This document shows positions 1 through 50,620 of a stretch of 64,000 nucleotides of DNA, in pieces. The DNA is from an uncultured Gammaproteobacteria bacterium. GTDB taxonomy: Bacteria; Patescibacteriota; Patescibacteriia; Magasanikbacterales; GWA2-37-8. Numbering within the stretch: the first letter of the stretch is position 1; each line of letters begins with the position of its first letter. Location: the NCBI GenBank assembly GCA_964465205.1, contig CAYXJO010000005.1, positions 4,552 through 68,551 of the forward strand, given 5' to 3'. Made by a program: the position numbers and the translations under genes. Under the pieces are notes generated by a model. That model was not told the DNA's origin, searched no databases, and saw nothing but the letters and a program-made list of their open reading frames with translations.

Positions 1-484
1 TACCACCGAGTGCCTGAACCGCCTCAAAGATAGGAATATAGTCCCGATCATTCACCAAAAACACAATGTTAGTTGCTTTGCCACTGGCGACCAGCATCAA
101 CACATCACAGATTAACTTGCCGTCAAGACCTTTTTCAGAGCGGGCAAAATGATCTCTGTACTGAGGGCTCAATTTTTGCAATTCTTCATCCGGAACGGTT
201 TCTATCGGTTCGCCGCACTCCTTTATTTGCCAATGATTTTTCTTGCCGGGCTCATCTGCTTCCGGCACAACAAGCATCGTTTTTATACGATTGTCATTTT
301 GTTTAAAATAATAGACAATACGAATCGTAGAGCCAACCCAAAGAGACCATTTTCGCATCAGTGCTTCTGTAAGAAGAGATATGTTCAATTTCTTATCATG
401 ATATTCCGTGTGCGTTCTCCTTATTTCATGGATGCTTGAAAATAAATGCGAACCGTCAATTATAAAATATCCTCTGTTATCCAT
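1..484 (-). CDS. NYN-domain (PIN-like) nuclease family protein, partial (runs off left edge of window)
   Basis: Not in the ORF track because it has no stop in the window. Minus-strand translation from ATG (482-484) is open to position 1: MDNRGYFIIDGSHLF...GKLICDVLMLVASGKATNIVFLVNDRDYIPIFEAVQALGG, which matches the NYN/LabA-like pattern (acidic residues, SGD-DF). Starts 1 nt after the stop of the upstream gene (TAAtATG). Confidence 0.5.
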   Translation of the reverse strand, partial: MDNRGYFIIDGSHLFSSIHEIRRTHTEYHDKKLNISLLTEALMRKWSLWVGSTIRIVYYFKQNDNRIKTMLVVPEADEPGKKNHWQIKECGEPIETVPDEELQKLSPQYRDHFARSEKGLDGKLICDVLMLVASGKATNIVFLVNDRDYIPIFEAVQALGG

Positions 485-485
485 A

Positions 486-782
486 TTATCTTTCACCACA
501 AAGAGGGTGGTATTTAGTTCTAATTAACCTTTCAAGTAATAAACGAAAGTTTTGGTCATTGCTTATATAGATATAAAGGCCGGTTTCACCAACTCCATTT
601 CTATACCAACACGTTTTTCGTTCGTGGTTTGGTATTCGAGAATTTATGTCACCCGTTTCTCCAACATCTACAACCTGATTATTATTATTTACTAATACAT
701 AAACACAGCCAAAATTTTGATTAAATTTTTTTGTGTGATAGTATGGTCCGGAAAATTGGAACCCCTCAATTTGAATAGCCAT
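486..782 (-). CDS. GIY-YIG nuclease domain protein (stand-alone, 98 aa)
   Basis: CVYVLVNNNNQVVDVGETGDINSRIPNHERK matches the GIY-(x10)-YIG-T...R...H(E) spacing of the GIY-YIG catalytic module. Confidence 0.55.
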   Translation of the reverse strand: MAIQIEGFQFSGPYYHTKKFNQNFGCVYVLVNNNNQVVDVGETGDINSRIPNHERKTCWYRNGVGETGLYIYISNDQNFRLLLERLIRTKYHPLCGER

Positions 783-790
783 ATTATTTA

Positions 791-1231
791 TTAATCAAAA
801 AATGATATCAAACAGTCATTTTTTATTTTAATATCATGTTCCCAAAATCTGCATACTTTCCAACCATTCCTTTTTAAGAAAGCGGTTGTTTTTATGTCCC
901 TTCGTCTATTGTTTTCAATTTTATTCCGCCAAAAATCATTTTTTAATAAGTGCTTCCATCTTGGATACTGCCAACCGTGCCAAAAATCACTATCTAAAAA
1001 AATACAAATTTTTTGTTTTGAAAAAACTATATCTGGATTCCCTCGCATACCACGAACATGCGTTTGAAACTTTACCTTCGTTTTTTTACGCAATTCCTTA
1101 ATAAAATCAGTTTCAAATTTGGTATTTTTTGAACGAATATGCGACATCAGCGATGATCTCTTTTTTGTCGAAAGTTTATCCGGCCTCCTCTTGGATTTGA
1201 AATTTCTGCCAAGATAATTTTTAATTACCAT
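791..1231 (-). CDS. vsr: Very-short-patch-repair (Vsr) DNA mismatch endonuclease
   Basis: MSHIRSKNTKFE...GNPDIVF...IFLDSDFWHGW...FWRNKIENNRRRD...GWKV..FWEH aligns motif-for-motif with E. coli Vsr (RSKNMR, PDFV, GCFWH, FW..KI..N..RD, GW.V..WE). Start chosen at M18 (1231), giving a TAAtATG junction with the upstream gene. Confidence 0.8.
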   Translation of the reverse strand: MVIKNYLGRNFKSKRRPDKLSTKKRSSLMSHIRSKNTKFETDFIKELRKKTKVKFQTHVRGMRGNPDIVFSKQKICIFLDSDFWHGWQYPRWKHLLKNDFWRNKIENNRRRDIKTTAFLKRNGWKVCRFWEHDIKIKNDCLISFFD

Positions 1232-1232
1232 A

Positions 1233-2264
1233 TTATAATCCCAAATGGAACACTTCGGAAGGTAAACAGCCGTCAAAATCATTCTTTTTATCGATCAAAT
1301 CCAACCACTGCTTTAATCTATTGGTGTTCACTTTGTCCACACGCCAATAATAGGCTAACTTTGCCGGATCTAAGGTGTTAATGGTGGATTTTATGTCTCC
1401 AGCGTATTCTTTGAGGTGATGCAAAATTCTTGGCACTGTTATTTTGCGTTTTCCAATTTTTACATTCTGTTGACCGCCGGCCGTGAAAGTATCTCGAATA
1501 TTCGAACTGACGGCGCCGTAGTTCGTGACTAGATACGAAGCCACTCTTTCAAATTTTAACGAGCTGGATCCAAAAATTTCAGGAAATAATATCATGCTCT
1601 CTAAAATAAATTTTGTCTTTTCTTTCTCGCTAAATTTACTAAAAGGTCGAATTATTGGATTCGCAGCGGCATCCGGCTGATCAATCCACCATAGTTCTTC
1701 ACCGTCGGTTAATTGTTTGCGATAATAATCCTTAATTCTTTGAATCGGATTTTCTTCTTTTCTTAGCGTGTCATAATCCACGCCTATCTTATTAAAAATC
1801 GACTGTCCATTCGCCAAATCCATGTTGATTTTGTAGCGAGGTGAGTGTGTCACGCCTACATCGCATAAACAGTCCTGGTATAGTCGGTATTTAATGTCGA
1901 AACCACCACCAAACTTACCGAAAAACATAAAAATTTTTTCGACCCCGTCTACCCGCGTGGTTTCTAAAACACTATTACCGGTTGACATCCACTTATCGTC
2001 TGTGGTCGCCTTAACTTCGGTCCCGAAAAATTTTTTCGCTATTATGTCAGGGAATGTCTGTGGGCCCGTTTGAACAACATCCCCCGCGAAAGCCGTGCCC
2101 TTAGATGCCTTTAACATCATCTGAAAGGTTAGATTTTCAAATTCCACTCCACCCATTTTCTTTATGGAGTTTTGTTGAATGTCCTTGACGCACAAATTTT
2201 TAGTGACTGATAGCAAACTAACAAAATCACTTTCTTTGATTTGGCCATTTTTAACGTAAATCAT
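1233..2264 (-). CDS. Putative PD-(D/E)xK type II restriction endonuclease (cognate R of the downstream/upstream Dcm-type MTase)
   Basis: 343-aa protein with no recognisable family. Contains FPDIIAKKFFGTEVK (PD...ExK spacing typical of the restriction-endonuclease fold). Sits between a C5-MTase and Vsr in one operon, which is the classic R position. Confidence 0.4.
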   Translation of the reverse strand: MIYVKNGQIKESDFVSLLSVTKNLCVKDIQQNSIKKMGGVEFENLTFQMMLKASKGTAFAGDVVQTGPQTFPDIIAKKFFGTEVKATTDDKWMSTGNSVLETTRVDGVEKIFMFFGKFGGGFDIKYRLYQDCLCDVGVTHSPRYKINMDLANGQSIFNKIGVDYDTLRKEENPIQRIKDYYRKQLTDGEELWWIDQPDAAANPIIRPFSKFSEKEKTKFILESMILFPEIFGSSSLKFERVASYLVTNYGAVSSNIRDTFTAGGQQNVKIGKRKITVPRILHHLKEYAGDIKSTINTLDPAKLAYYWRVDKVNTNRLKQWLDLIDKKNDFDGCLPSEVFHLGL

Positions 2265-2271
2265 ACTGCGA

Positions 2272-4029
2272 TTATTTTAAATTTTCATCTAAAAATTTTT
2301 CTATGGACGCGGCAACGTGCCAAGCCAAAACTGGCGGCACGGCGTTTCCGATTTGTTTGTAAGCTGCCGAGGTGGAGGGATAAAACACAAAATCATCGGG
2401 AAAAGACTGGATTCGCGCCGCTTCTCTAGCTGACAGTCTTCTTTTACCGTTCCAGTGATACTCTATATTGCCGTGATGTTCAGTGCGCATTGTTGGGCCG
2501 GGTTTATCGGGGGAAACCGTGTTGTTACCTTGTCCATTATTTTTTATCGCTTTGGACCAAAAATGATTAGGAGCGGCGCCCTCTTTCACCTTTTCTAGAT
2601 CACCGATGGCTTGTTTGAGTGGCACCCAATTATCTTTTGTTAGTATGGGATCTGGATGACTAAATGGCGGAAGTTTACTTTTGAGCGTGCCGACAATAAT
2701 AACCCTCTGCCTAATCTGTGGCACGCCGTAGTCGGCGGCGGTAAGTAATTTATATACCACATGGTACCCTAAGGCCGCAAAATCCTTTACAATTGTTTCG
2801 ATGGCCGCGCCGTCGTTCATTGTTAAAAGTCCACGAACATTTTCGGCGACAAAAAGCACCGGTTTCGTTCTTCGGATAACTTCAATCATGCTTTGATACA
2901 AAAGACCACGTTTGCTGTTAAAACCTTTGCGCTTGCCGGCGTGGCTAAAATCCTGACACGGGAATCCACCCAAAACAATGTCAACTTTCGGCGGAATCGG
3001 TTTATCTAACGAGGAAACCTTTTTGTTATCAAGAATTTGTCTAATATCACCACACACGATCGGGTGTTTGAAGTATCTTTGATAAGTAACGCAAGCGTGT
3101 TCGTCAAAATCGTTAGCCCAAACGATTTCAAATTTATTTGCTTTGTATTTTTTGCCCAAAGAATTAAATCCTCCGGTAAAGCCTAGGTCCAACCCGCCGC
3201 AACCGGCGAACAATGACGCAACTGTGTATTTGTTTTGAATATTATTTTTCATAATTAAATTTTCGTAATTTCCATAAATGTTTGCTTGGTGAGTGTCCAC
3301 CAACACATCGAATAATGTTGATAGTTGGCCTTCAGCTAAATACTTGACATTGTTAAAATCCGCGCCGTTTTTCGCCCCCAAAACGCTATGAGCGTTTTTA
3401 TCTCCTATTATTATAAAGTCCAAAACATTAATACCCATTGTTTTGCCGGCGGTGACGATCTCGCTGGCAATTTGTTCATCTTGGACGCTTGGCGTTGGAT
3501 CGCCCGACGGATGATTATGTAACAATATAACGCTGGCCGCTCTAAGTTCCAAAGCGGGCGCGAAAACGTCACGGGGGTGAATTATACTTCGATCTAAAGT
3601 GCCGACCGAAATAATTTCTTTTTTAATCAGCGCGCAACGAGCGTTTAAATATAAACAAATTAAATGCTCTTGTTTTTTATCTCTTAAATCTGACGCCATG
3701 GCGACTGCGTCGCCGGGCGACAATATAATTTTTTCCAAAATATTCTGTTTATCAAAATATCTTTTCGCCAAGGATAGCATGGCTGTTATTTGTAAGGCTT
3801 TAGCCTGGCCAATACCTTTGATTTGTTTGAGGTCGTCAACCGTTGCGTTTAGAAGATTGCCACCAAATTTATTAACAATCTTTTGCGCCAAAACTTTCAC
3901 ATTAACGCCTTTAATTCCATTGCCCAAAACAATCGCTAACAGCTCCGCGTCAATTAAGGCGTCGGGGCCTTTCTCTAAAAATTTTTCTCGAGGCCGTTCA
4001 AATTTAGGAGTATCCTTTATCTTTACCAT
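2272..4029 (-). CDS. Fusion protein: N-terminal RadC-like (HhH + JAB/MPN) domain, C-terminal C5-cytosine DNA methyltransferase (Dcm-type)
   Basis: N-terminal ELLAIVLGNGIKGVNV...LLHNHPSGDPTPS (RadC/UPF0758 JAMM motif HNHPSG). C-terminal FAGCGGLDLGF (motif I), GGFPCQDFSHAGKRKG (motif IV PCQ), FVAENVRGL (motif VI ENV), QIRQRVIIVG (VIII) and IGNAVPPVLA (X). Single uninterrupted 585-aa ORF. Confidence 0.8.
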   Translation of the reverse strand: MVKIKDTPKFERPREKFLEKGPDALIDAELLAIVLGNGIKGVNVKVLAQKIVNKFGGNLLNATVDDLKQIKGIGQAKALQITAMLSLAKRYFDKQNILEKIILSPGDAVAMASDLRDKKQEHLICLYLNARCALIKKEIISVGTLDRSIIHPRDVFAPALELRAASVILLHNHPSGDPTPSVQDEQIASEIVTAGKTMGINVLDFIIIGDKNAHSVLGAKNGADFNNVKYLAEGQLSTLFDVLVDTHQANIYGNYENLIMKNNIQNKYTVASLFAGCGGLDLGFTGGFNSLGKKYKANKFEIVWANDFDEHACVTYQRYFKHPIVCGDIRQILDNKKVSSLDKPIPPKVDIVLGGFPCQDFSHAGKRKGFNSKRGLLYQSMIEVIRRTKPVLFVAENVRGLLTMNDGAAIETIVKDFAALGYHVVYKLLTAADYGVPQIRQRVIIVGTLKSKLPPFSHPDPILTKDNWVPLKQAIGDLEKVKEGAAPNHFWSKAIKNNGQGNNTVSPDKPGPTMRTEHHGNIEYHWNGKRRLSAREAARIQSFPDDFVFYPSTSAAYKQIGNAVPPVLAWHVAASIEKFLDENLK

Positions 4030-4030
4030 A

Positions 4031-4255
4031 TCATTTGATCAATTCATCAATACTAATTTCCAACCCGGCCGCAATTTTCACGACGGTTTGTATAGATGGC
4101 TTGGTGATAACATTCGATTCAATTTTTGTGAGCGTGGCGTATGGAATATCACATTTCCGCGCCAGTTTATCCTGCGTCAAACCCTGCTTCATGCGCAGTT
4201 TTTGAATCTTATCCCCAACTGTCTCTTGTTTGTTTTTACTTTTTCCACTATCCAT
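4031..4255 (-). CDS. HTH XRE-family transcriptional regulator (controller/C-protein-like)
   Basis: 74 aa, LRMKQGLTQDKLARKCDIPYATLTKIESN is a canonical Cro/C1 HTH. First gene of the operon, 1 nt upstream of the MTase ATG. Confidence 0.7.
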   Translation of the reverse strand: MDSGKSKNKQETVGDKIQKLRMKQGLTQDKLARKCDIPYATLTKIESNVITKPSIQTVVKIAAGLEISIDELIK

Positions 4256-4308
4256 AGTATAATAGTATAATAGTATAGTTAGGAAAGCATATGTCGGTTC
4301 CCAACCGA
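4256..4308 (-). promoter_or_regulatory. Operon control region: 2.5 tandem copies of AGTATAAT (minus strand ATTATACT, -10-like) abutting the C-gene ATG, plus palindrome TCGGTTcccAACCGA (4294-4308)
   Basis: Direct read of sequence. A candidate C-protein operator or promoter for the minus-strand operon. Confidence 0.35.
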
Positions 4309-4554
4309 TAATATTCTATCACGATTCGCCAAACCAATCAACAAAGAAAAGTTTGCTTTTGGCCAACATAAAGTTCGAGCCGACATTTTTACGGGTTCTT
4401 TGGCGGTTTTTACCCGCCGGAGCCCTCGTTTGTCCGGCGCGGGCGGAAGGAAGGGGTGTGGGGAGGGAATTCCGCCCGCGCGCCCCTAAATTTCGTCCAA
4501 ATCCGTTCGTATTTTTTCGTAAGTGGTGAGCCAGTCAGGACAAGTGGGGTTTTC

Positions 4555-4602
4555 GGCGATTACGCGCCAGCCCCTTTTGGCCAAACAATCGAATTTTTTG
4601 TC
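4555..4602. repeat. Left copy of a perfect 48-bp inverted repeat (GGCGATTACGCGCCAGCCCCTTTTGGCCAAACAATCGAATTTTTTGTC)
   Basis: Exact reverse complement of 6021-6068. The imperfect match extends about 10 bp further outward (GGGGTTTTC / GAAACGGCCCC). Confidence 0.9.
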
Positions 4603-4655
4603 TTGTCCCGCCACGGCGGGACGCCAAAAGCAAACTTTTCTTAATCGTTATCAAT

Positions 4656-6131
4656 ATGTTCAAATATTTTCTCTACGCTCGCAAGTCAACAGACGAGGAA
4701 GACCGTCAGGTTTTGTCCATCGAGGCCCAACTCGACGAACTCAAAGAATTTGCCGTTAAAGAAAAACTGGAAATCGTCGCCTCGTTTCACGAGGCAAAAA
4801 CCGCCAAAGAACCCGGCCGTAATATATTCGGCGAAATGTTATCGCGAATTTCCGCCGGCGAAGCCAACGGTATTTTAGCTTGGCATCCTGATCGGCTTGC
4901 CCGCAATCCGATTGACGGTGGGCAAGTGATTTACATGGTTGATACCGGAAAAATAAATTCCCTCAAATTTCCGACCTTTTGGTTCGAAGACACTCCACAG
5001 GGCAAGTTTATGCTTAACATTGCTTTCGGGCAGAGCAAATACTTCATAGATAACCTATCGGAGAATGTAAAGCGCGGGCTACGCCAAAAACTTCGCCGAG
5101 GAGAATGGCCGGGCTGGGCCCCGATAGGTTATCTAAATGATTTACGGACTCACACCATAATCGTGGACAAAGAAAAACATAAACTTGTAAAAAGGATTTT
5201 TGAAATGTACGCGACCAGCAATTATGGTTTAAGGGAACTGGCGGGCATTGCCAATAACTATGGATTGGTAAGCCAAACAAACAAAAAGATGTCGGGCAGT
5301 ATGATCCAGCACATTTTACAAAATCCTTTTTACTGCGGAGTGTTCCGTTTTAACGGCGAACTGCACGAGGCCAAACACGAGCCGATTATTACCAAGAAAC
5401 TTTTTGAAGAAGTAAAAAATGTCCTTTTGCGCCGTGGCCGTCCGCATAAAAAGAAAAAGCACGAATATATTTTCACCGGTTTAATTAAATGCGGGGTTTG
5501 CGGGTGTTATATCACGGCCGAACGGCAAAAAGGACATATCTATTATCGCTGTACCAAAAAGAAAAGCGTTTGCGATGAAAAATATGTCCGCGAGGAAGAC
5601 ATAACCGAACAAATAAAACAATTTCTTCAAAAAGTTTCTTTACCCGACGATTGGGCCGAAAAAATGTTGAATAAAATTGAGCAAGATAAAAATAACGAGG
5701 CCCAATCTAACGGTGCCCTTGTTCAATCGTGCCAAGACGAGGTACAAATAATTGATCAAAAATTAGACAAACTTTTGGACTCTCATTTGGATGGCACGAT
5801 TGAGAAGCAAATCTATATCAAAAAGAAAGAAGTTTTTATTAACAGAAAACTAACTTTAGAGGGTAAGGTCAAAGAATTTTTGAACAAGGGCGCTAATCGG
5901 CTCGAACCGGTGAGGGAATTTATTTTATCCAATATTAAAGCCAAAAAAACCGCCTTGGCGGGCGATTTGGCGGAAATTCGCGAATCATTACAAAATGTCG
6001 GCTCGAACTTTATGTTGAAAGACAAAAAATTCGATTGTTTGGCCAAAAGGGGCTGGCGCGTAATCGCCGAAACGGCCCCACATTCGACGTGGCTCCCAGG
6101 GTCGGATTCGAACCGACGACCAACTCGTTAA
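4656..6131 (+). CDS. Large serine recombinase (resolvase/invertase catalytic domain + recombinase domain + zinc ribbon)
   Basis: N-terminal YARKSTDEEDRQ...SIEAQ (catalytic Ser motif), GILAWHPDRLARN, C-terminal Cys cluster CGVCGC...YYRC. 491 aa. The last ~14 codons are read-through into the antisense strand of the tRNA. Confidence 0.85.
   Translation: MFKYFLYARKSTDEEDRQVLSIEAQLDELKEFAVKEKLEIVASFHEAKTAKEPGRNIFGEMLSRISAGEANGILAWHPDRLARNPIDGGQVIYMVDTGKINSLKFPTFWFEDTPQGKFMLNIAFGQSKYFIDNLSENVKRGLRQKLRRGEWPGWAPIGYLNDLRTHTIIVDKEKHKLVKRIFEMYATSNYGLRELAGIANNYGLVSQTNKKMSGSMIQHILQNPFYCGVFRFNGELHEAKHEPIITKKLFEEVKNVLLRRGRPHKKKKHEYIFTGLIKCGVCGCYITAERQKGHIYYRCTKKKSVCDEKYVREEDITEQIKQFLQKVSLPDDWAEKMLNKIEQDKNNEAQSNGALVQSCQDEVQIIDQKLDKLLDSHLDGTIEKQIYIKKKEVFINRKLTLEGKVKEFLNKGANRLEPVREFILSNIKAKKTALAGDLAEIRESLQNVGSNFMLKDKKFDCLAKRGWRVIAETAPHSTWLPGSDSNRRPTR
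6021..6068. repeat. Right copy of the 48-bp inverted repeat, inside the 3-prime end of the recombinase ORF and 22 bp from the tRNA-Asn 3-prime end
   Basis: Exact reverse complement of 4555-4602. Confidence 0.9.
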
Positions 6132-6164
6132 CAGCGAGCTGCGCTACCGCTGCGCTACCTGGGA
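6090..6164 (-). tRNA. tRNA-Asn (anticodon GUU), 75 nt with encoded CCA
   Basis: Hand-folded: acceptor TCCCAGG/CCTGGGA, D stem GCGC/GCGC, anticodon stem GCTCG/CGAGT with loop CTGTTAA, T arm GTCGG-TTCGAAT-CCGAC, discriminator G, CCA. Confidence 0.85.
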
Positions 6165-6205: not shown

Positions 6206-6530
6206 CAGGGAGTTATTAAAATATATTAAACTGCTAAAGATGTTGTTGTCAAGTTTGTTTATTTTAGTATTTTTTTTGTTTCCATTTTAACGTGAGATAA
6301 AAATGGCTAAGTCTAGCATTAAATAAGCCGCTTTGTCGGATTTATCCACAGATTTATTTGACACTGTTCTAGTGAGTATGTTAACGTTAATGCATATGAA
6401 TTTGTCCCAGCAAAAAAATAGTAAAAGTTTAATTCAGATTTGGATGTTGATTAGCAACGTCATGTTTTATGCGTTGTTTTTTTGGTGGGGTGAAGATGAT
6501 TTTGTGAAAGCGTAATTTTGTAAAGTCATA

Positions 6531-6725: not shown

Positions 6726-8111
6726 ATGAACGTCGAATTGCACTCTCTCTTCACTCCGCATAATGCCGAAACCAAAAATCTGGGCCCGACGATTGATCGC
6801 AAGATTCAATCTTCGGTGATGTTGTGTCACACCTTGCCAGACTACCAGGTGGTTTATCCTCAAGCCGTGGTGCAGGCACTGTGCGAATTGTACACCGAGT
6901 ACAATCTCGCCTTCCGCAAACTGGTTGAAGCCAATAGAGAATGGTCCGACGACTACCACCACTTGATGTACGGTCCCGATTGCACCCCGGTGAACTTCGC
7001 TGTCCAGATCGACATGTTGGGGTTGCCGGAGTGGTTTCTGCAAGAGGCGACGACTATGCCCGTCAACCTGTTGCGCGAACTGTTGCGCGGTACGGTGTTC
7101 GAGATCGAAAACTCCTTGGCCATGTACCAACTGCTCGAACGTACTTGTGCCAATGGCGATGGCCCGTCGTACTTCCAGCCGCGTTTTCGTCAGGCGTTGG
7201 ACGAGTTGCGCCGGCGCCACGGTAAGCCCATCGCGTTACTGGCTGTAACCCAGCAAAAGTATCAAGCGATGCGTGAGTCCGAATTTGGCAAGCAGGATGG
7301 AGACGCGCTGTCGAACCAAGAAGTTCGTGATCTGTCCGGATTCGATTACTTCTTTGGTCCTGATGAATTCCGCCACCATGTCCAAGAGAAGGGTGGATGC
7401 GAATTCATGCTGTACGTGCGTTCATCCGATCCGGTGGCCAAACTCAAGAAACCCAAATTGAGCGTCGATCATCCGCTCCTGGGCGACGCACAAATGCGCC
7501 GTGTCATCAAAGCGAACGCGATCACGTTCAATGTGGATGCTCCGGAAATGCAATACCCGCAACGCATCAACGACACCAAAGAATACATGGGTCCGCTCGG
7601 CATGGGGTACGAAATCAGCCGTGTAGAAGACCTTATGTCCGGTGAAGTGTGCGAACACCTGGCCACCAGCCATTCGTTCGAAGAATATCATGGCCAACGT
7701 TTGTCCGACGGGTTTGCTCAATACCTGGCGCGTCGTGGAATGCCGATGCAAGCAATCGAATCCGGTTCTGTCCACTTGCGGGCCAAACCGGCCAAGGGTA
7801 CTTACGGTTGCTACGGCCATGTGCGCGGCCCCTTGTCCAGCGGCGCCAAATTCCGCAAAGATTTGGCTTACGAATTGAGGCAACGAGGTGGTACATACGT
7901 GGTGCAGCCGGAAATGACCACGCCGCAGATCGTCAATACCAAAGACGGCGTCACGTACACGTACATCGATCGCAATTTTCTCGCCTTTACCAATGGCCAT
8001 CCGGTTTTCCTCGGCGGCTTCCGTTCGATGTTGCCGGTGGACACCAACGAGGCCCACAAGGGTCGAGTGCATGGTAATCGCGACACGGTCTGGGCGGAAA
8101 TCGTAGCCTAG
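6726..8111 (+). CDS. GC-rich ORFan, possible ATP-grasp-like enzyme (461 aa)
   Basis: Composition is far GC-richer than its flanks (by eye mid-50s % versus ~40%). Strong RBS AACAGGAG before the ATG. C-terminal AKPAKGTYGCYGHV...YVVQPEM...NGHP resembles the K-P-x-x-G-s-x-G-x-G-V / Q-E ATP-grasp signature. The overlapping antisense ORFs are GC-driven shadows. Confidence 0.45.
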   Translation: MNVELHSLFTPHNAETKNLGPTIDRKIQSSVMLCHTLPDYQVVYPQAVVQALCELYTEYNLAFRKLVEANREWSDDYHHLMYGPDCTPVNFAVQIDMLGLPEWFLQEATTMPVNLLRELLRGTVFEIENSLAMYQLLERTCANGDGPSYFQPRFRQALDELRRRHGKPIALLAVTQQKYQAMRESEFGKQDGDALSNQEVRDLSGFDYFFGPDEFRHHVQEKGGCEFMLYVRSSDPVAKLKKPKLSVDHPLLGDAQMRRVIKANAITFNVDAPEMQYPQRINDTKEYMGPLGMGYEISRVEDLMSGEVCEHLATSHSFEEYHGQRLSDGFAQYLARRGMPMQAIESGSVHLRAKPAKGTYGCYGHVRGPLSSGAKFRKDLAYELRQRGGTYVVQPEMTTPQIVNTKDGVTYTYIDRNFLAFTNGHPVFLGGFRSMLPVDTNEAHKGRVHGNRDTVWAEIVA

Positions 8112-39295: not shown

Positions 39296-39853
39296 ATGTT
39301 TTTATCCAAATCACAAAATACAGACGTTACCATAAAAAGATGGCATCGATGGGTTGTTGGAATAATAGTATTATTAACTATAGTAGTGAATTTGTATTCA
39401 TTTTATTGGCCGCGTGTGCGTGTGCAAATGGTTGGGCAGGACATACGAGTCGTGGTGGCCGATACCAATAAACATCGTTTGCGCGGTCTAAGCGGGCGAG
39501 ATGATTTTCGCAATACTGGCGGGTTATTGTTTGTATTTCCTCAATCCGGTATTCACACTATGGTCATGCGCGACATGAAGATGCCAATTGATGTGGTCTG
39601 GATAGCTACTGCATCGGATAACCACAAATGTCGGGTAGGATCGTATTTTAGGCAGCTATTTTTTGGTGTTCGACCCACTTGTAAAGGGGTGGTAGTTGAG
39701 ATTGCGCCCAATATTCAGCCGGAGCCGGGGAAAACAGAAATAGAGTTGAAAAAATATTTTTCTACCAAAAATTCCACAATGGTACTGGAATTACCGGCCG
39801 GTTGGACGGAGCAGAACGGATTGAAGATAGGGGATTTAGTGCAAGTGAGGTAA
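39296..39853 (+). CDS. DUF192 (COG1430)-like protein with N-terminal TM anchor
   Basis: GLSGRDDF...GLLFVFP...PIDVVWI pattern typical of DUF192. Confidence 0.45.
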   Translation: MFLSKSQNTDVTIKRWHRWVVGIIVLLTIVVNLYSFYWPRVRVQMVGQDIRVVVADTNKHRLRGLSGRDDFRNTGGLLFVFPQSGIHTMVMRDMKMPIDVVWIATASDNHKCRVGSYFRQLFFGVRPTCKGVVVEIAPNIQPEPGKTEIELKKYFSTKNSTMVLELPAGWTEQNGLKIGDLVQVR

Positions 39854-39923
39854 AATTTTAAAATTAATTTGGCTATAATTAGCCAAGAAAATGGCTTCCT
39901 GTGGATAAGTTGAGCACACCCTC

Positions 39924-39952
39924 TTGACAAAAGAGGGATTTTGTGTTATACT
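39924..39952 (+). promoter_or_regulatory. Consensus promoter TTGACA-17-TATACT with extended -10 (TGTGtTATACT) and a 7-bp palindrome CCCTCTT/AAGAGGG straddling the -35
   Basis: Direct read of ctcTTGACAaaagagggattttgtgtTATACT. Confidence 0.6.
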
Positions 39953-39958
39953 AATCAG

Positions 39959-40203
39959 TTGCGAAAATGTAAAACGCAATACGGTCTCCCTGTTTCATCG
40001 TGTAATGAAATAGGGAATGAAGCAATTGTAAACAATGAAAGGACCAACTAATGAGGTGAGCGCAGCGCGGAGCGCGCAAAAAATCCGCGGGTGGCACCCG
40101 CACCGGAAATAGCCAGAGGCGACATCGGCCTCGACGTCGAGCCTAGCTCCGTCAAAAGGGTGTATTTTACAGGGTGGCTTCGGCCGCCCTTCTTTATTTA
40201 TTA
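39959..40203 (+). ncRNA. Candidate small RNA / leader transcript (about 240 nt) between its own promoter and an intrinsic terminator, upstream of rplU
   Basis: No ORF. Several hairpins (GTTGCG/CGCAAT, CCCTGTTTCAT/ATGAAATAGGG, GCGGG/CCCGC, CTCGAC/GTCGAG palindrome). Ends in AGGGTGGC-ttcg-GCCGCCCT + TCTTTATTTATT (40171-40203). GC-rich relative to flanks. Confidence 0.45.
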
Positions 40204-40210
40204 TCTGCTA

Positions 40211-40239
40211 TTGACATTTTTAGAGAGTTTTGGTATGAT
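40211..40239 (+). promoter_or_regulatory. Second promoter TTGACA-17-TATGAT immediately before rplU
   Basis: ttgacatttttagagagttttggtatgat. Confidence 0.5.
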
Positions 40240-40274
40240 AATCCCACTGTAAATCAATTAAATTCACTATATAT

Positions 40275-40580
40275 ATGTACGCAGTTATTGCTACCGGCGG
40301 AAAACAATATTTGGTTAAAACCGGTGAAACTATCAAGGTAGAAAAATTGGCTGTCAAAGAAGGCGAAAAATTCGCTTTTGACAAAGTGCTTCTTACTGCC
40401 AAAGATGATGGTACCGATGTCAAAGTCGGCACCCCATATTTGGAAGGAGTATCAATTGAGACCAGCGTGATCAAACAGGGTAAAAATCGTACTTTGTTGG
40501 TAGAAAAATTCAAAAACAAAGTTCGCTATCACAAAACCCACGGTCAACGCCAGAGATTTACGGAAGTGAAGATTGGATAA
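40275..40580 (+). CDS. rplU: 50S ribosomal protein L21
   Basis: MYAVIATGGKQYLVKTGETIKVEKL is the canonical L21 N-terminus. Confidence 0.9.
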   Translation: MYAVIATGGKQYLVKTGETIKVEKLAVKEGEKFAFDKVLLTAKDDGTDVKVGTPYLEGVSIETSVIKQGKNRTLLVEKFKNKVRYHKTHGQRQRFTEVKIG

Positions 40581-40590
40581 AATACAAATT

Positions 40591-40670
40591 AAACAGCGGA
40601 TACAATATATTTTAGTGCCCAAGCTCCCTGCGGTCGAAGGGCACATAAAACATGTTGTATCCGCTGTTTT
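40591..40670. repeat. Long-hairpin element copy A (outer stem AAACAGCGGATACAA/TTGTATCCGCTGTTT, inner conserved TATATTTTAGTGCC ... GGGCACATAAAACATG)
   Basis: Second copy at 63410-63510 shows compensatory stem changes; a T-run follows. Confidence 0.6.
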
Positions 40671-49666: not shown

Positions 49667-49698
49667 TAGGCTAGCCATAGCCAATATTCGTTTTAGGC

Positions 49699-49727
49699 TT
49701 GACAAAAAGCTATTTTTGTGCTATAAT
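49699..49727 (+). promoter_or_regulatory. Promoter TTGACA-17-TATAAT (extended TGTGcTATAAT) driving a ~140-nt structured leader
   Basis: ttgacaaaaagctatttttgtgctataat; the leader contains hairpin CCTCAAAACACATTTTGAGGG. Confidence 0.55.
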
Positions 49728-49874
49728 ATATCCGAGTGAAAATTACTTTAATTAAGCAATTTTCTCTAAATTGGGTACAAAACCTATAGTTTCAAAAAGA
49801 CGTAAAGTGGAGTCCCCAAGGGTCGTTTAAATAATTTCCTCAAAACACATTTTGAGGGCAAAACAAAAAACGTT

Positions 49875-50201
49875 ATGTCTTTTGGAAACGATAGGCAAAT
49901 GTACGATGTGGATCTTTCCTGCGCCAAATGCGGGTCCCACATTTCTCAATTGCCATTTCAACCGTCTGGAGATCGCCCGGTGTATTGCAACGAATGCAAT
50001 CGCGCCTTCCGCGCTTCTCGTGATGGCGGTGCTTCCCGTGGGGGTTTCTCTCGCGGTCCGCGCGCTCCGAGACAGATGTTCGCCGTGAATTTGACCTGTG
50101 CCGATTGTGGCCAGGCCATCACCGAACTTCCGTTTCAGCCGTCCGGTGACAAGCCGGTGTATTGCAAGGATTGTATCCGCAATCATCGTCCTGCTAGATA
50201 A
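49875..50201 (+). CDS. GC-rich tandem zinc-ribbon protein (108 aa, two CxxC...CxxC repeats)
   Basis: Two near-identical modules, SCAKCGSHISQLPFQPSGDRPVYCNECNR and TCADCGQAITELPFQPSGDKPVYCKDCIR. GC about mid-50s %. Confidence 0.5.
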   Translation: MSFGNDRQMYDVDLSCAKCGSHISQLPFQPSGDRPVYCNECNRAFRASRDGGASRGGFSRGPRAPRQMFAVNLTCADCGQAITELPFQPSGDKPVYCKDCIRNHRPAR

Positions 50202-50325: not shown

Positions 50326-50620
50326 ATTTTTGAATAAAAAAATAGACCTGACGTCGGCAGTCTATTTTGCGGTGCACCAGCATATAGGTGGTGTCGATAT
50401 GCAAGCCGGAAGGCACGTAGCCGATTTAGTAAAAAATCGGACAAGAACGCGCACAGAGGCTTACAGGGATCAACCCTTTTGTTTGCTGGTGATTGGCAAA
50501 CCGCATGTTTAGATGTCGACGTCAGGCACTCGGGACGAGATTAAATATAACAAATTGATAATATTATTGTCAATATATTACCTTGAACTTATCCACAGAT
50601 TGGGTTATAATGTTTTTATT

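Follow-up and report, generated by a model that had tools for sequence, protein, structure and literature searches.

The window analysed here is a stretch of 64,000 nucleotides (nt) of contig CAYXJO010000005.1 from an uncultured bacterium, and the locus under study is the 421-nt intergenic region between a DUF192 gene and rplU, the gene for ribosomal protein L21. Two promoters, P1 and P2, could be identified in this region. P2 is the one next to rplU. P1 lies further upstream and is followed by a stretch predicted to be transcribed into a non-coding RNA (ncRNA) that ends at an intrinsic terminator. The features of the locus are listed in Table 1.

Table 1. Features of the region between DUF192 and rplU. 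Positions are those of the window; H1-H7 are predicted hairpins, ORF is open reading frame, SD is Shine-Dalgarno sequence and aa is amino acids.
Feature	Position	Strand	Remarks
Lineage-specific insertion, ∼354 nt, between the DUF192 stop and P2	39854-40207	+	boundaries approximate, within ∼15 nt
Perfect 7-4-7 palindrome TTGGCTA-TAAT-TAGCCAA	39869-39886		centre ∼80 nt 5' of the predicted P1 start; -9.2 kcal/mol as RNA
Perfect DnaA-box consensus TTATCCACA (TGTGGATAA on the plus strand)	39900-39908	-	∼-59 to -51 from the predicted P1 start
Hairpin CCCTCTT-GACAA-AAGAGGG, then AUUUUGUGUU	39919-39937	+	-11.0 kcal/mol; loop and stem span the P1 -35 box
Promoter P1, TTGACA-17-TATACT, TGn extended -10	39924-39952	+	predicted start ∼39957-39959
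Predicted transcript, ∼240 nt	39958-40200	+	eight hairpins of high pair probability, with A-rich single-stranded linkers between them
Hairpins H1; H2 (12 bp); H3	39959-39979; 39987-40016; 40025-40036	+	fold prediction
ORF of 25 codons (MKGPTNEVSAARSAQKIRGWHPHRK), the only ATG ORF in the transcript	40035-40112	+	no Pfam match
Hairpins H4; H5; H6; H7; terminator hairpin	40060-40077; 40087-40101; 40116-40132; 40133-40153; 40171-40190	+	fold prediction
Intrinsic terminator AGGGUGGC-UUCG-GCCGCCCU and U-rich tract UCUUUAUUUAUUA	40171-40203	+	-15.7 kcal/mol
Promoter P2, TTGACA-17-TATGAT, TGn	40211-40239	+	11/12 consensus matches
rplU (L21, 101 aa), monocistronic, SD-less leader of ∼30 nt	40275-40580	+	ATG at 40275

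P1 consists of TTGACA at 39924-39929 and TATACT at 39947-39952, with the TG of the extended -10 element at 39944-45, and it matches the consensus at 11/12 positions. Promoters of comparable quality (at least 11/12 matches, or at least 10/12 with a TG) are rare, as only 15 were found on both strands of the 64 kb. From its predicted fold, the hairpin that overlaps the -35 box of P1 could plausibly serve the clpB...DUF192 operon upstream as intrinsic terminator. The same design was observed twice in the window, at 39919-39947 and at 49696-49722: the -35 TTGACA is located inside the stem and loop of a hairpin (ATTTTGTGT and ATTTTTGTG) and the U-run behind the hairpin doubles as promoter spacer, so that a terminator-like signal of the upstream gene is embedded in the next promoter. 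By eye, the second case is the weaker one. At the other end of the unit, the terminator stem-loop AGGGTGGC-TTCG-GCCGCCCT contains 8 bp, of which 6 are GC pairs, and is followed by TCTTTATTTA. This places the end of the P1 transcript 8-20 nt 5' of the -35 box of P2.

This layout agrees with the original prediction, made from the DNA letters of this stretch, which had described a consensus promoter with a 7-bp palindrome over its -35 box, a non-coding stretch of ∼240 nt with at least five hairpins and a GC-rich 3' half, and a UUCG terminator with a U-run ahead of a second promoter and rplU. All these features are present where they had been placed, and the number of predicted hairpins is now eight. 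It had also pointed out that rplU has no obvious SD. This is correct, yet usual in the window, where an SD-like motif in the 20 nt before the start was found for only 8/57 genes; the rplU genes of the relatives described below are without an SD as well.

The 243-nt RNA was predicted to fold with a minimum free energy of -84.2 kcal/mol (z = -2.78), and 1 of 200 shuffled sequences folded equally well. When both strands were compared, the plus strand was slightly better than the minus strand (z of -2.73 vs -2.21). The stems of H2 and of the terminator hold G.U pairs, which on the minus strand would be A.C. The plus strand is therefore favoured by the promoter, the U-tract of the terminator, the G.U pairs and the fold energy. 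A transcript from the minus strand was considered and rejected: a terminator-like hairpin is present at 40102-40086, but the fold is worse on this strand, and the only promoter candidate is a 10/12 site with a poor -10 box (GATAGT) at 40357-40329, inside rplU, with nothing better found by eye between 40200 and 40300.

The GC content of the unit is uneven. It reaches 0.65 at 40050-40149, compared with a window mean of 0.42, and only 0.2% of the 100-nt segments in the window reach 0.65. With a 100-nt maximum of 0.67, the intergenic region is an outlier among the intergenic regions of the window, and its GC-rich zone (40058-40190) coincides with the stems. In AT-rich genomes, long GC-rich intergenic regions are used to find structured ncRNAs (the GC-IGR approach), which nominates candidates only. 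The region studied here resembles such candidates in its length and its GC maximum, and differs in that its structure is predicted from this one sequence.

The GC-rich block begins inside the 25-codon ORF and continues for ∼60-80 nt past its stop, which indicates that the GC richness follows the hairpins and not a coding sequence. The ORF is probably not a gene. That the transcript is instead the mRNA of this 25-aa micro-protein, flanked by structured untranslated regions (UTRs), is very unlikely. Its ATG does have an AT-rich context, as is typical of this SD-poor genome, and a related cassette beside rplU of another lineage (L095, see below) has a similar promoter in front of a small, GC-rich ORF. 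The ORF is, however, very short and not hydrophobic, it is filled with the GC-rich hairpins H4 and H5, and no homologue was found. When the 25-aa ORF and the longest frames without a stop in the six-frame translation were scanned with Pfam, no match was obtained, and the idea that the unit is a gene remnant was rejected on the same scan.

For comparison with relatives, rplU loci were taken from genome, metagenome and assembly collections. The L21 homologues place the locus in Candidatus Magasanikbacteria, a lineage of the Candidate Phyla Radiation (CPR)/Patescibacteria, with the nearest non-identical L21 proteins at 86%, 82%, and 81% identity. Twelve Magasanikbacteria-type loci were examined (L001-L003, L081, L091, L095, and L104-L109; L21 68-86% identical). 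In the closest relatives the gene order is clpB ... glycosyltransferase-4 - DUF192 - rplU - (variable) - recR - ybaB - dnaB. In 12/12 relatives rplU has one TTGACA-17-TATAnT promoter, located 30-130 nt 5' of the ATG. In those with DUF192 as the immediate upstream neighbour, the stop of DUF192 falls within the -35 box of rplU or precedes it by 10-20 nt, and the spacer between the two genes is 63-107 nt long vs 421 nt here. An element resembling the unit upstream of rplU was absent from all 12 loci, although the synteny of DUF192 and rplU is kept.

P2 (CTATTGACATTTTTAGAGAGTTTTGGTATGAT) and the corresponding promoter of L081 (CTATTGACATTTTTGGCGAGTTTTGCTATACT) share 14/17 spacer positions, and the leader AATCCCA... 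matches that of L001. These sequences clearly identify P2 as the ancestral rplU promoter. Since the relatives have only short spacers between DUF192 and rplU, the ∼354 nt in front of P2 are regarded as an insertion that is private to this lineage. The insertion contains an AT-rich stretch with the palindrome, the DnaA box, the sigma-70-type promoter P1, the body of the RNA and the terminator. Downstream of it, the original P2 is still complete, as is the short leader of this promoter. Conservation of the hairpins in related genomes had been named in the original prediction as a test of its proposal, and none could be observed at the homologous intergenic region. This speaks against an ancient conserved RNA, but not against a young, lineage-specific one.

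Combining these results, the reading preferred here, with a probability of roughly 0.5, is that the unit is a young, lineage-specific and self-contained transcription unit, which was inserted between DUF192 and the ancestral rplU promoter and makes a stand-alone RNA of ∼240 nt. Transcription would start from P1 at ∼39958 and RNA polymerase would stop at ∼40198. The predicted product is a stand-alone ncRNA of two domains, of which the 5' one (H1-H3) is rich in AT and the 3' one (H4-H7) rich in GC. The hairpin over the -35 box of P1 would end the upstream operon, and the terminator would insulate P2 and rplU from P1. If the RNA acts at all, a role in trans is most likely, as a protein-binding RNA or a regulatory small RNA (sRNA). 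The unit has the layout of a stand-alone sRNA gene: promoter and intrinsic terminator are its own, both are on one strand, and no long ORF separates them. It is similar to orphan, species-specific sRNAs that have a sigma-70 promoter and an intrinsic terminator, as these likewise are 100-300 nt long, contain several hairpins, end in a terminator hairpin with a U-tract, occupy intergenic sites and are not conserved beyond a narrow lineage. It differs from them in that it is a prediction only, with no seed or target identified and no chaperone context, and compared with typical base-pairing sRNAs its hairpins are more numerous and richer in GC.

To compare the unit with known RNA families, the whole window was scanned with Rfam 15 at gathering thresholds and the region 39800-40350 was scanned permissively with cmscan at E<=10. 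The first scan identified only a tRNA-Asn. The second returned only MicX (minus strand, 19 bits) and AniS (18 bits), both spurious and caused by terminator-like hairpins; signal recognition particle (SRP) RNA, 6S RNA, transfer-messenger RNA (tmRNA), RNase P, T-box, riboswitch and L21_leader models had no match in this region at E<=10. ARAGORN likewise found the tRNA-Asn alone in the window and no tmRNA. The cmscan check that had been suggested together with the original prediction (SRP_bact, 6S, L21_leader, tmRNA) thus gave no match even at the permissive threshold. Among the three readings offered there, the independent sRNA is the one that stands, with its own promoter and terminator in an insertion 5' of the ancestral P2. 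The L21-leader-type attenuator and the SRP/4.5S-like RNA, the latter already called weak, do not.

For SRP RNA (RF00169 and the SRP clan), the likeness consists of a short string, CCGGAA..AGCC..AGG, that recalls domain IV of 4.5S RNA. In the unit CC-GGAA-AU cannot close the loop, so that no closed GGAA tetraloop is formed, and part of the GGAA is left unpaired in the predicted fold. In place of one long rod or long hairpin, the prediction shows short hairpins in a row, and length and architecture are wrong. The 6S RNA family (RF00013) was rejected because there is no model match and the fold is not a rod, and tmRNA because neither ARAGORN nor Rfam identified one. A highly divergent form of such a universal RNA (SRP/4.5S, 6S, RNase P or tmRNA) is extremely improbable. 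The weak resemblance to SRP domain IV speaks for it, as does the fact that Rfam also misses a strongly structured RNA candidate at 50335-50540, which shows that its sensitivity in this clade is imperfect. That candidate is, on the other hand, the better 6S-like one, and a universal RNA would neither be missing at the syntenic site of every relative nor arise as a recent insertion.

Like the L21 leader (RF00559) and other autoregulatory leaders of ribosomal proteins, the unit is a structured RNA directly 5' of rplU, on the same strand and with a terminator-like end. If it acted in cis, read-through of the terminator from P1, for example upon binding of free L21, would add to or control the expression of rplU, and the interruption of the U-tract (UCUUUAUUUA) makes some read-through plausible. 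The unit is, however, cut off from rplU by the complete ancestral promoter P2, which has a leader of only ∼30 nt, and does not belong to the 5' UTR of rplU. No L21_leader or other leader model matched, be it at gathering thresholds or at E<=10; the relatives, with their single promoter and short leader, do not keep the element upstream of rplU; and inspection of the sequence and the fold by eye revealed no convincing antiterminator that could form in place of the terminator stem. Given this arrangement of sequences, the unit is unlikely to be an attenuator, and a cis-acting leader of rplU is considered quite improbable.

Homologues and copies of the element were searched in several collections. 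The 21-mer CCGGAAATAGCCAGAGGCGAC, located at 40103-40123, had no exact match in metagenome contigs. Five patterns searched in viral contigs gave either no matches or only chance 17-18-mers, blastn against ∼190 collected loci found no homologue of the element, and in a distant BLAST search of phages and plasmids only the terminator was matched. This generic match to intergenic terminators of Erwinia phages is the one similarity of the insert to sequences outside the window. A weak inverted repeat of ACACCCTCTTGAC (39916-39928) and GTCAAAAGGGTGT (40151-40163), complementary at 12/13 positions, brackets 248 bp with most of the RNA body and includes the -35 box of P1. This may be the remnant of a terminal repeat, a stem formed over a long distance when transcripts read through, or a chance occurrence. 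With its ∼250 bp and an imperfect 13-nt inverted repeat that runs into a -35 box, the unit is reminiscent of promoter-carrying Correia elements and miniature inverted-repeat transposable elements (MITEs). It differs from them in that it is single-copy, that no target-site duplication is visible around the insert, and that no copies were found in the 64 kb, the loci of the relatives, the metagenome 21-mer scan, viral contigs, phages or plasmids. The chance expectation of such a repeat in the region is ∼0.08 by our own estimate. A miniature mobile element with a promoter in its terminal repeat is thus highly unlikely.

Several results weigh against a functional, stand-alone RNA. No homologue of the element was found in any collection searched, and self-BLAST found no second copy in the 64-kb window. 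With a z-score of only -2.8, the structure is real, yet exceeds the background only moderately. When six accessible segments of the RNA were compared with 67 translation-start regions, no antisense target scored better than shuffled controls, and a CsrB-like sponge was rejected since the 4 GGA motifs counted by eye in ∼240 nt are about the number expected by chance. In addition, the flanks of rplU are a hotspot of unrelated, lineage-specific insertions in Magasanikbacteria, so the insert could be neutral acquired DNA. In L001 an inserted gene, PEBP-like by eye, is located upstream of rplU (1497-1956), and in L081 an ORFan of 181 aa is found downstream of rplU (3534-4079). In L095 (3340-3730; also in L096-L098) a cassette 3' of rplU consists of a GC-rich 65-aa ORFan with a strong promoter, an SD and a terminator. 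The promoter of this cassette (TTGACAAAAG..GG...TGTGnTATAAT) is similar to P1, and TTGGCTAAGAT from the 3' end of rplU recurs twice beside the cassette. The 65-aa ORF has a perfect AAAGGAGGAG, in contrast to the gene starts in the window, which lie in AT-rich contexts such as aaataatttATG, and it looks horizontally acquired.

The function of the unit is possibly none, and the main rival to the preferred reading is a neutral, recent insert: foreign or rearranged DNA in the hotspot at the flanks of rplU, which is tolerated due to the terminator and the intact P2 and makes a functionless RNA. Considering that the insert is unique to one genome, that its 3' half has a GC content foreign to that genome, that neighbouring lineages carry unrelated insertions at the locus, such as the L095 cassette with its similar promoter, and that no target or family was found, this explanation is possible, although doubtful. 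It has to account for an extended -10 promoter of native type that is close to perfect and is preceded by a DnaA box and a perfect palindrome, and for a canonical terminator and intact hairpins whose G.U pairs fit the transcribed strand. In a small, streamlined genome, such signals should be lost from DNA that decays as junk.

The DnaA box upstream of P1 is one of five perfect boxes in the window (at 6342, 21259, 31950, 39900, and 50589), where 0.66 are expected and 0/100 shuffled sequences reached five; with one mismatch allowed, the consensus TTATCCACA(G) occurs 41 times vs 19 expected. Perfect boxes are also present in L081 (3468) and L184 (2490), the latter being a contig of the metagenome sample that also yielded the nearest relative. 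Four of the five boxes in the window are intergenic or lie in promoters, namely before P1, in the spacer of the mnmA promoter, upstream of mraZ and upstream of the gene at 6726-8111, and the box in the mnmA promoter spacer is conserved in L184. This pattern of sites suggests a DnaA-type transcriptional regulon, and the box and the palindrome in front of P1 suggest that this promoter may be regulated. The palindrome is a possible operator, and a similar repeat, TTGGCT...AGCCAA, precedes the cassette promoter of L095. Because the boxes are enriched and mostly intergenic, P1 looks like a regulated, native-style promoter, which speaks mildly against pure junk.

By eye, the P1 spacer matches that of the promoter at 49699 at 10/17 positions and that of the L095 cassette promoter at 11/17. 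On this comparison P1 appears to be a strong promoter of a type generic to this clade, and it is not demonstrably a duplicate of P2; the idea that P1 is a copy of the rplU promoter was rejected as unproven, since P1 matches unrelated strong promoters equally well. An origin of replication, which the DnaA box might bring to mind, was likewise rejected because the intergenic region upstream of rplU contains only one box and the GC-skew minimum at ∼4-6 kb falls on an integrated element and not on an origin. Homology of the insert to the box-bearing intergenic region 3' of rplU in L081 was also rejected, as only a 12-mer around the box is common to both.

A more far-reaching interpretation would be that the insertion encodes a newly acquired, abundant regulatory RNA with multiple hairpins, whose promoter P1 is controlled via the DnaA box and thereby tied to replication or the cell cycle, and which serves as a protein decoy or as a fresh L21-responsive element. 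This is rather unlikely; if true, it would represent an sRNA born de novo in a streamlined genome, at a hotspot of insertions. If expressed, the stand-alone RNA of the preferred reading would join the very small number of candidate regulatory RNAs that have been described from CPR bacteria. It would also show how a new, strongly transcribed RNA gene can find a place ahead of an essential ribosomal-protein gene and leave it undisturbed, since the terminator precedes the retained native promoter. Full-text literature searches for 6S or structured ncRNAs of CPR/Patescibacteria found no papers. As an orphan of a single genome that has no comparative support, the unit is mainly of value as a lead for metatranscriptomics. 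The practical outcome is negative: the unit is not an SRP RNA, a 6S RNA or an L21 leader, and the absence of an SD is a genome-wide trait.

Downstream of rplU, between the convergent genes rplU and recR, a nested and very long hairpin is located at 40591-40668 (-42 kcal/mol on the plus strand and -44 on the minus strand). It has U-runs on both strands, and its predicted fold looks like that of a bidirectional terminator. The hairpins of the relatives at this site are simpler.

A second unannotated RNA candidate of ∼200 nt could be identified at 50335-50540 on the minus strand, divergent from mnmA and preceded by a TTGACA-18-TTATATT promoter at ∼50545-50573. Its 5' and 3' ends are paired (CCUGACGUCG...CGACGUCAGG), a U-run is present, and the whole RNA is predicted to fold into one long rod that is interrupted by internal bubbles (-81.7 kcal/mol, z = -7.86). 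No Rfam match was obtained for it at E<=10. In L184 a structured counterpart (z = -4.63) is located in synteny and on the same strand at 2285-2440 (minus), with a sequence that has diverged beyond detection by BLAST. From its modelled fold, the RNA at 50335-50540 looks like a divergent 6S-type RNA of CPR bacteria, and it is a much stronger RNA candidate than the unit upstream of rplU. The counterpart in L184 serves as a positive control: an old RNA gene of this genome can be picked up through synteny, so the missing counterpart of the rplU-upstream unit is not just a sampling artefact.

Next to this RNA, the only TGn promoter with 12/12 matches on the plus strand (unit at 49699-50201) drives a gene for a 108-aa double treble-clef zinc-finger protein (PF23477) with a 5' UTR of ∼140 nt. 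L184 and L187 both keep the zinc-finger gene, again upstream of mnmA.

At the start of the window, positions 1-6164 probably represent an integrated mobile element that adjoins the tRNA-Asn (6093-6164, minus strand). It encodes a large serine recombinase (4656-6131), a fusion of RadC and a C5 DNA methylase (2272-4029, minus strand) and a 74-aa ORF (4031-4255, minus strand) that by eye looks like an XRE-type helix-turn-helix protein. A negative GC skew was observed only within this part of the window, and the element contains a very GC-rich (0.67) hairpin region at ∼4420-4490, inside an intergenic region of 626 nt.

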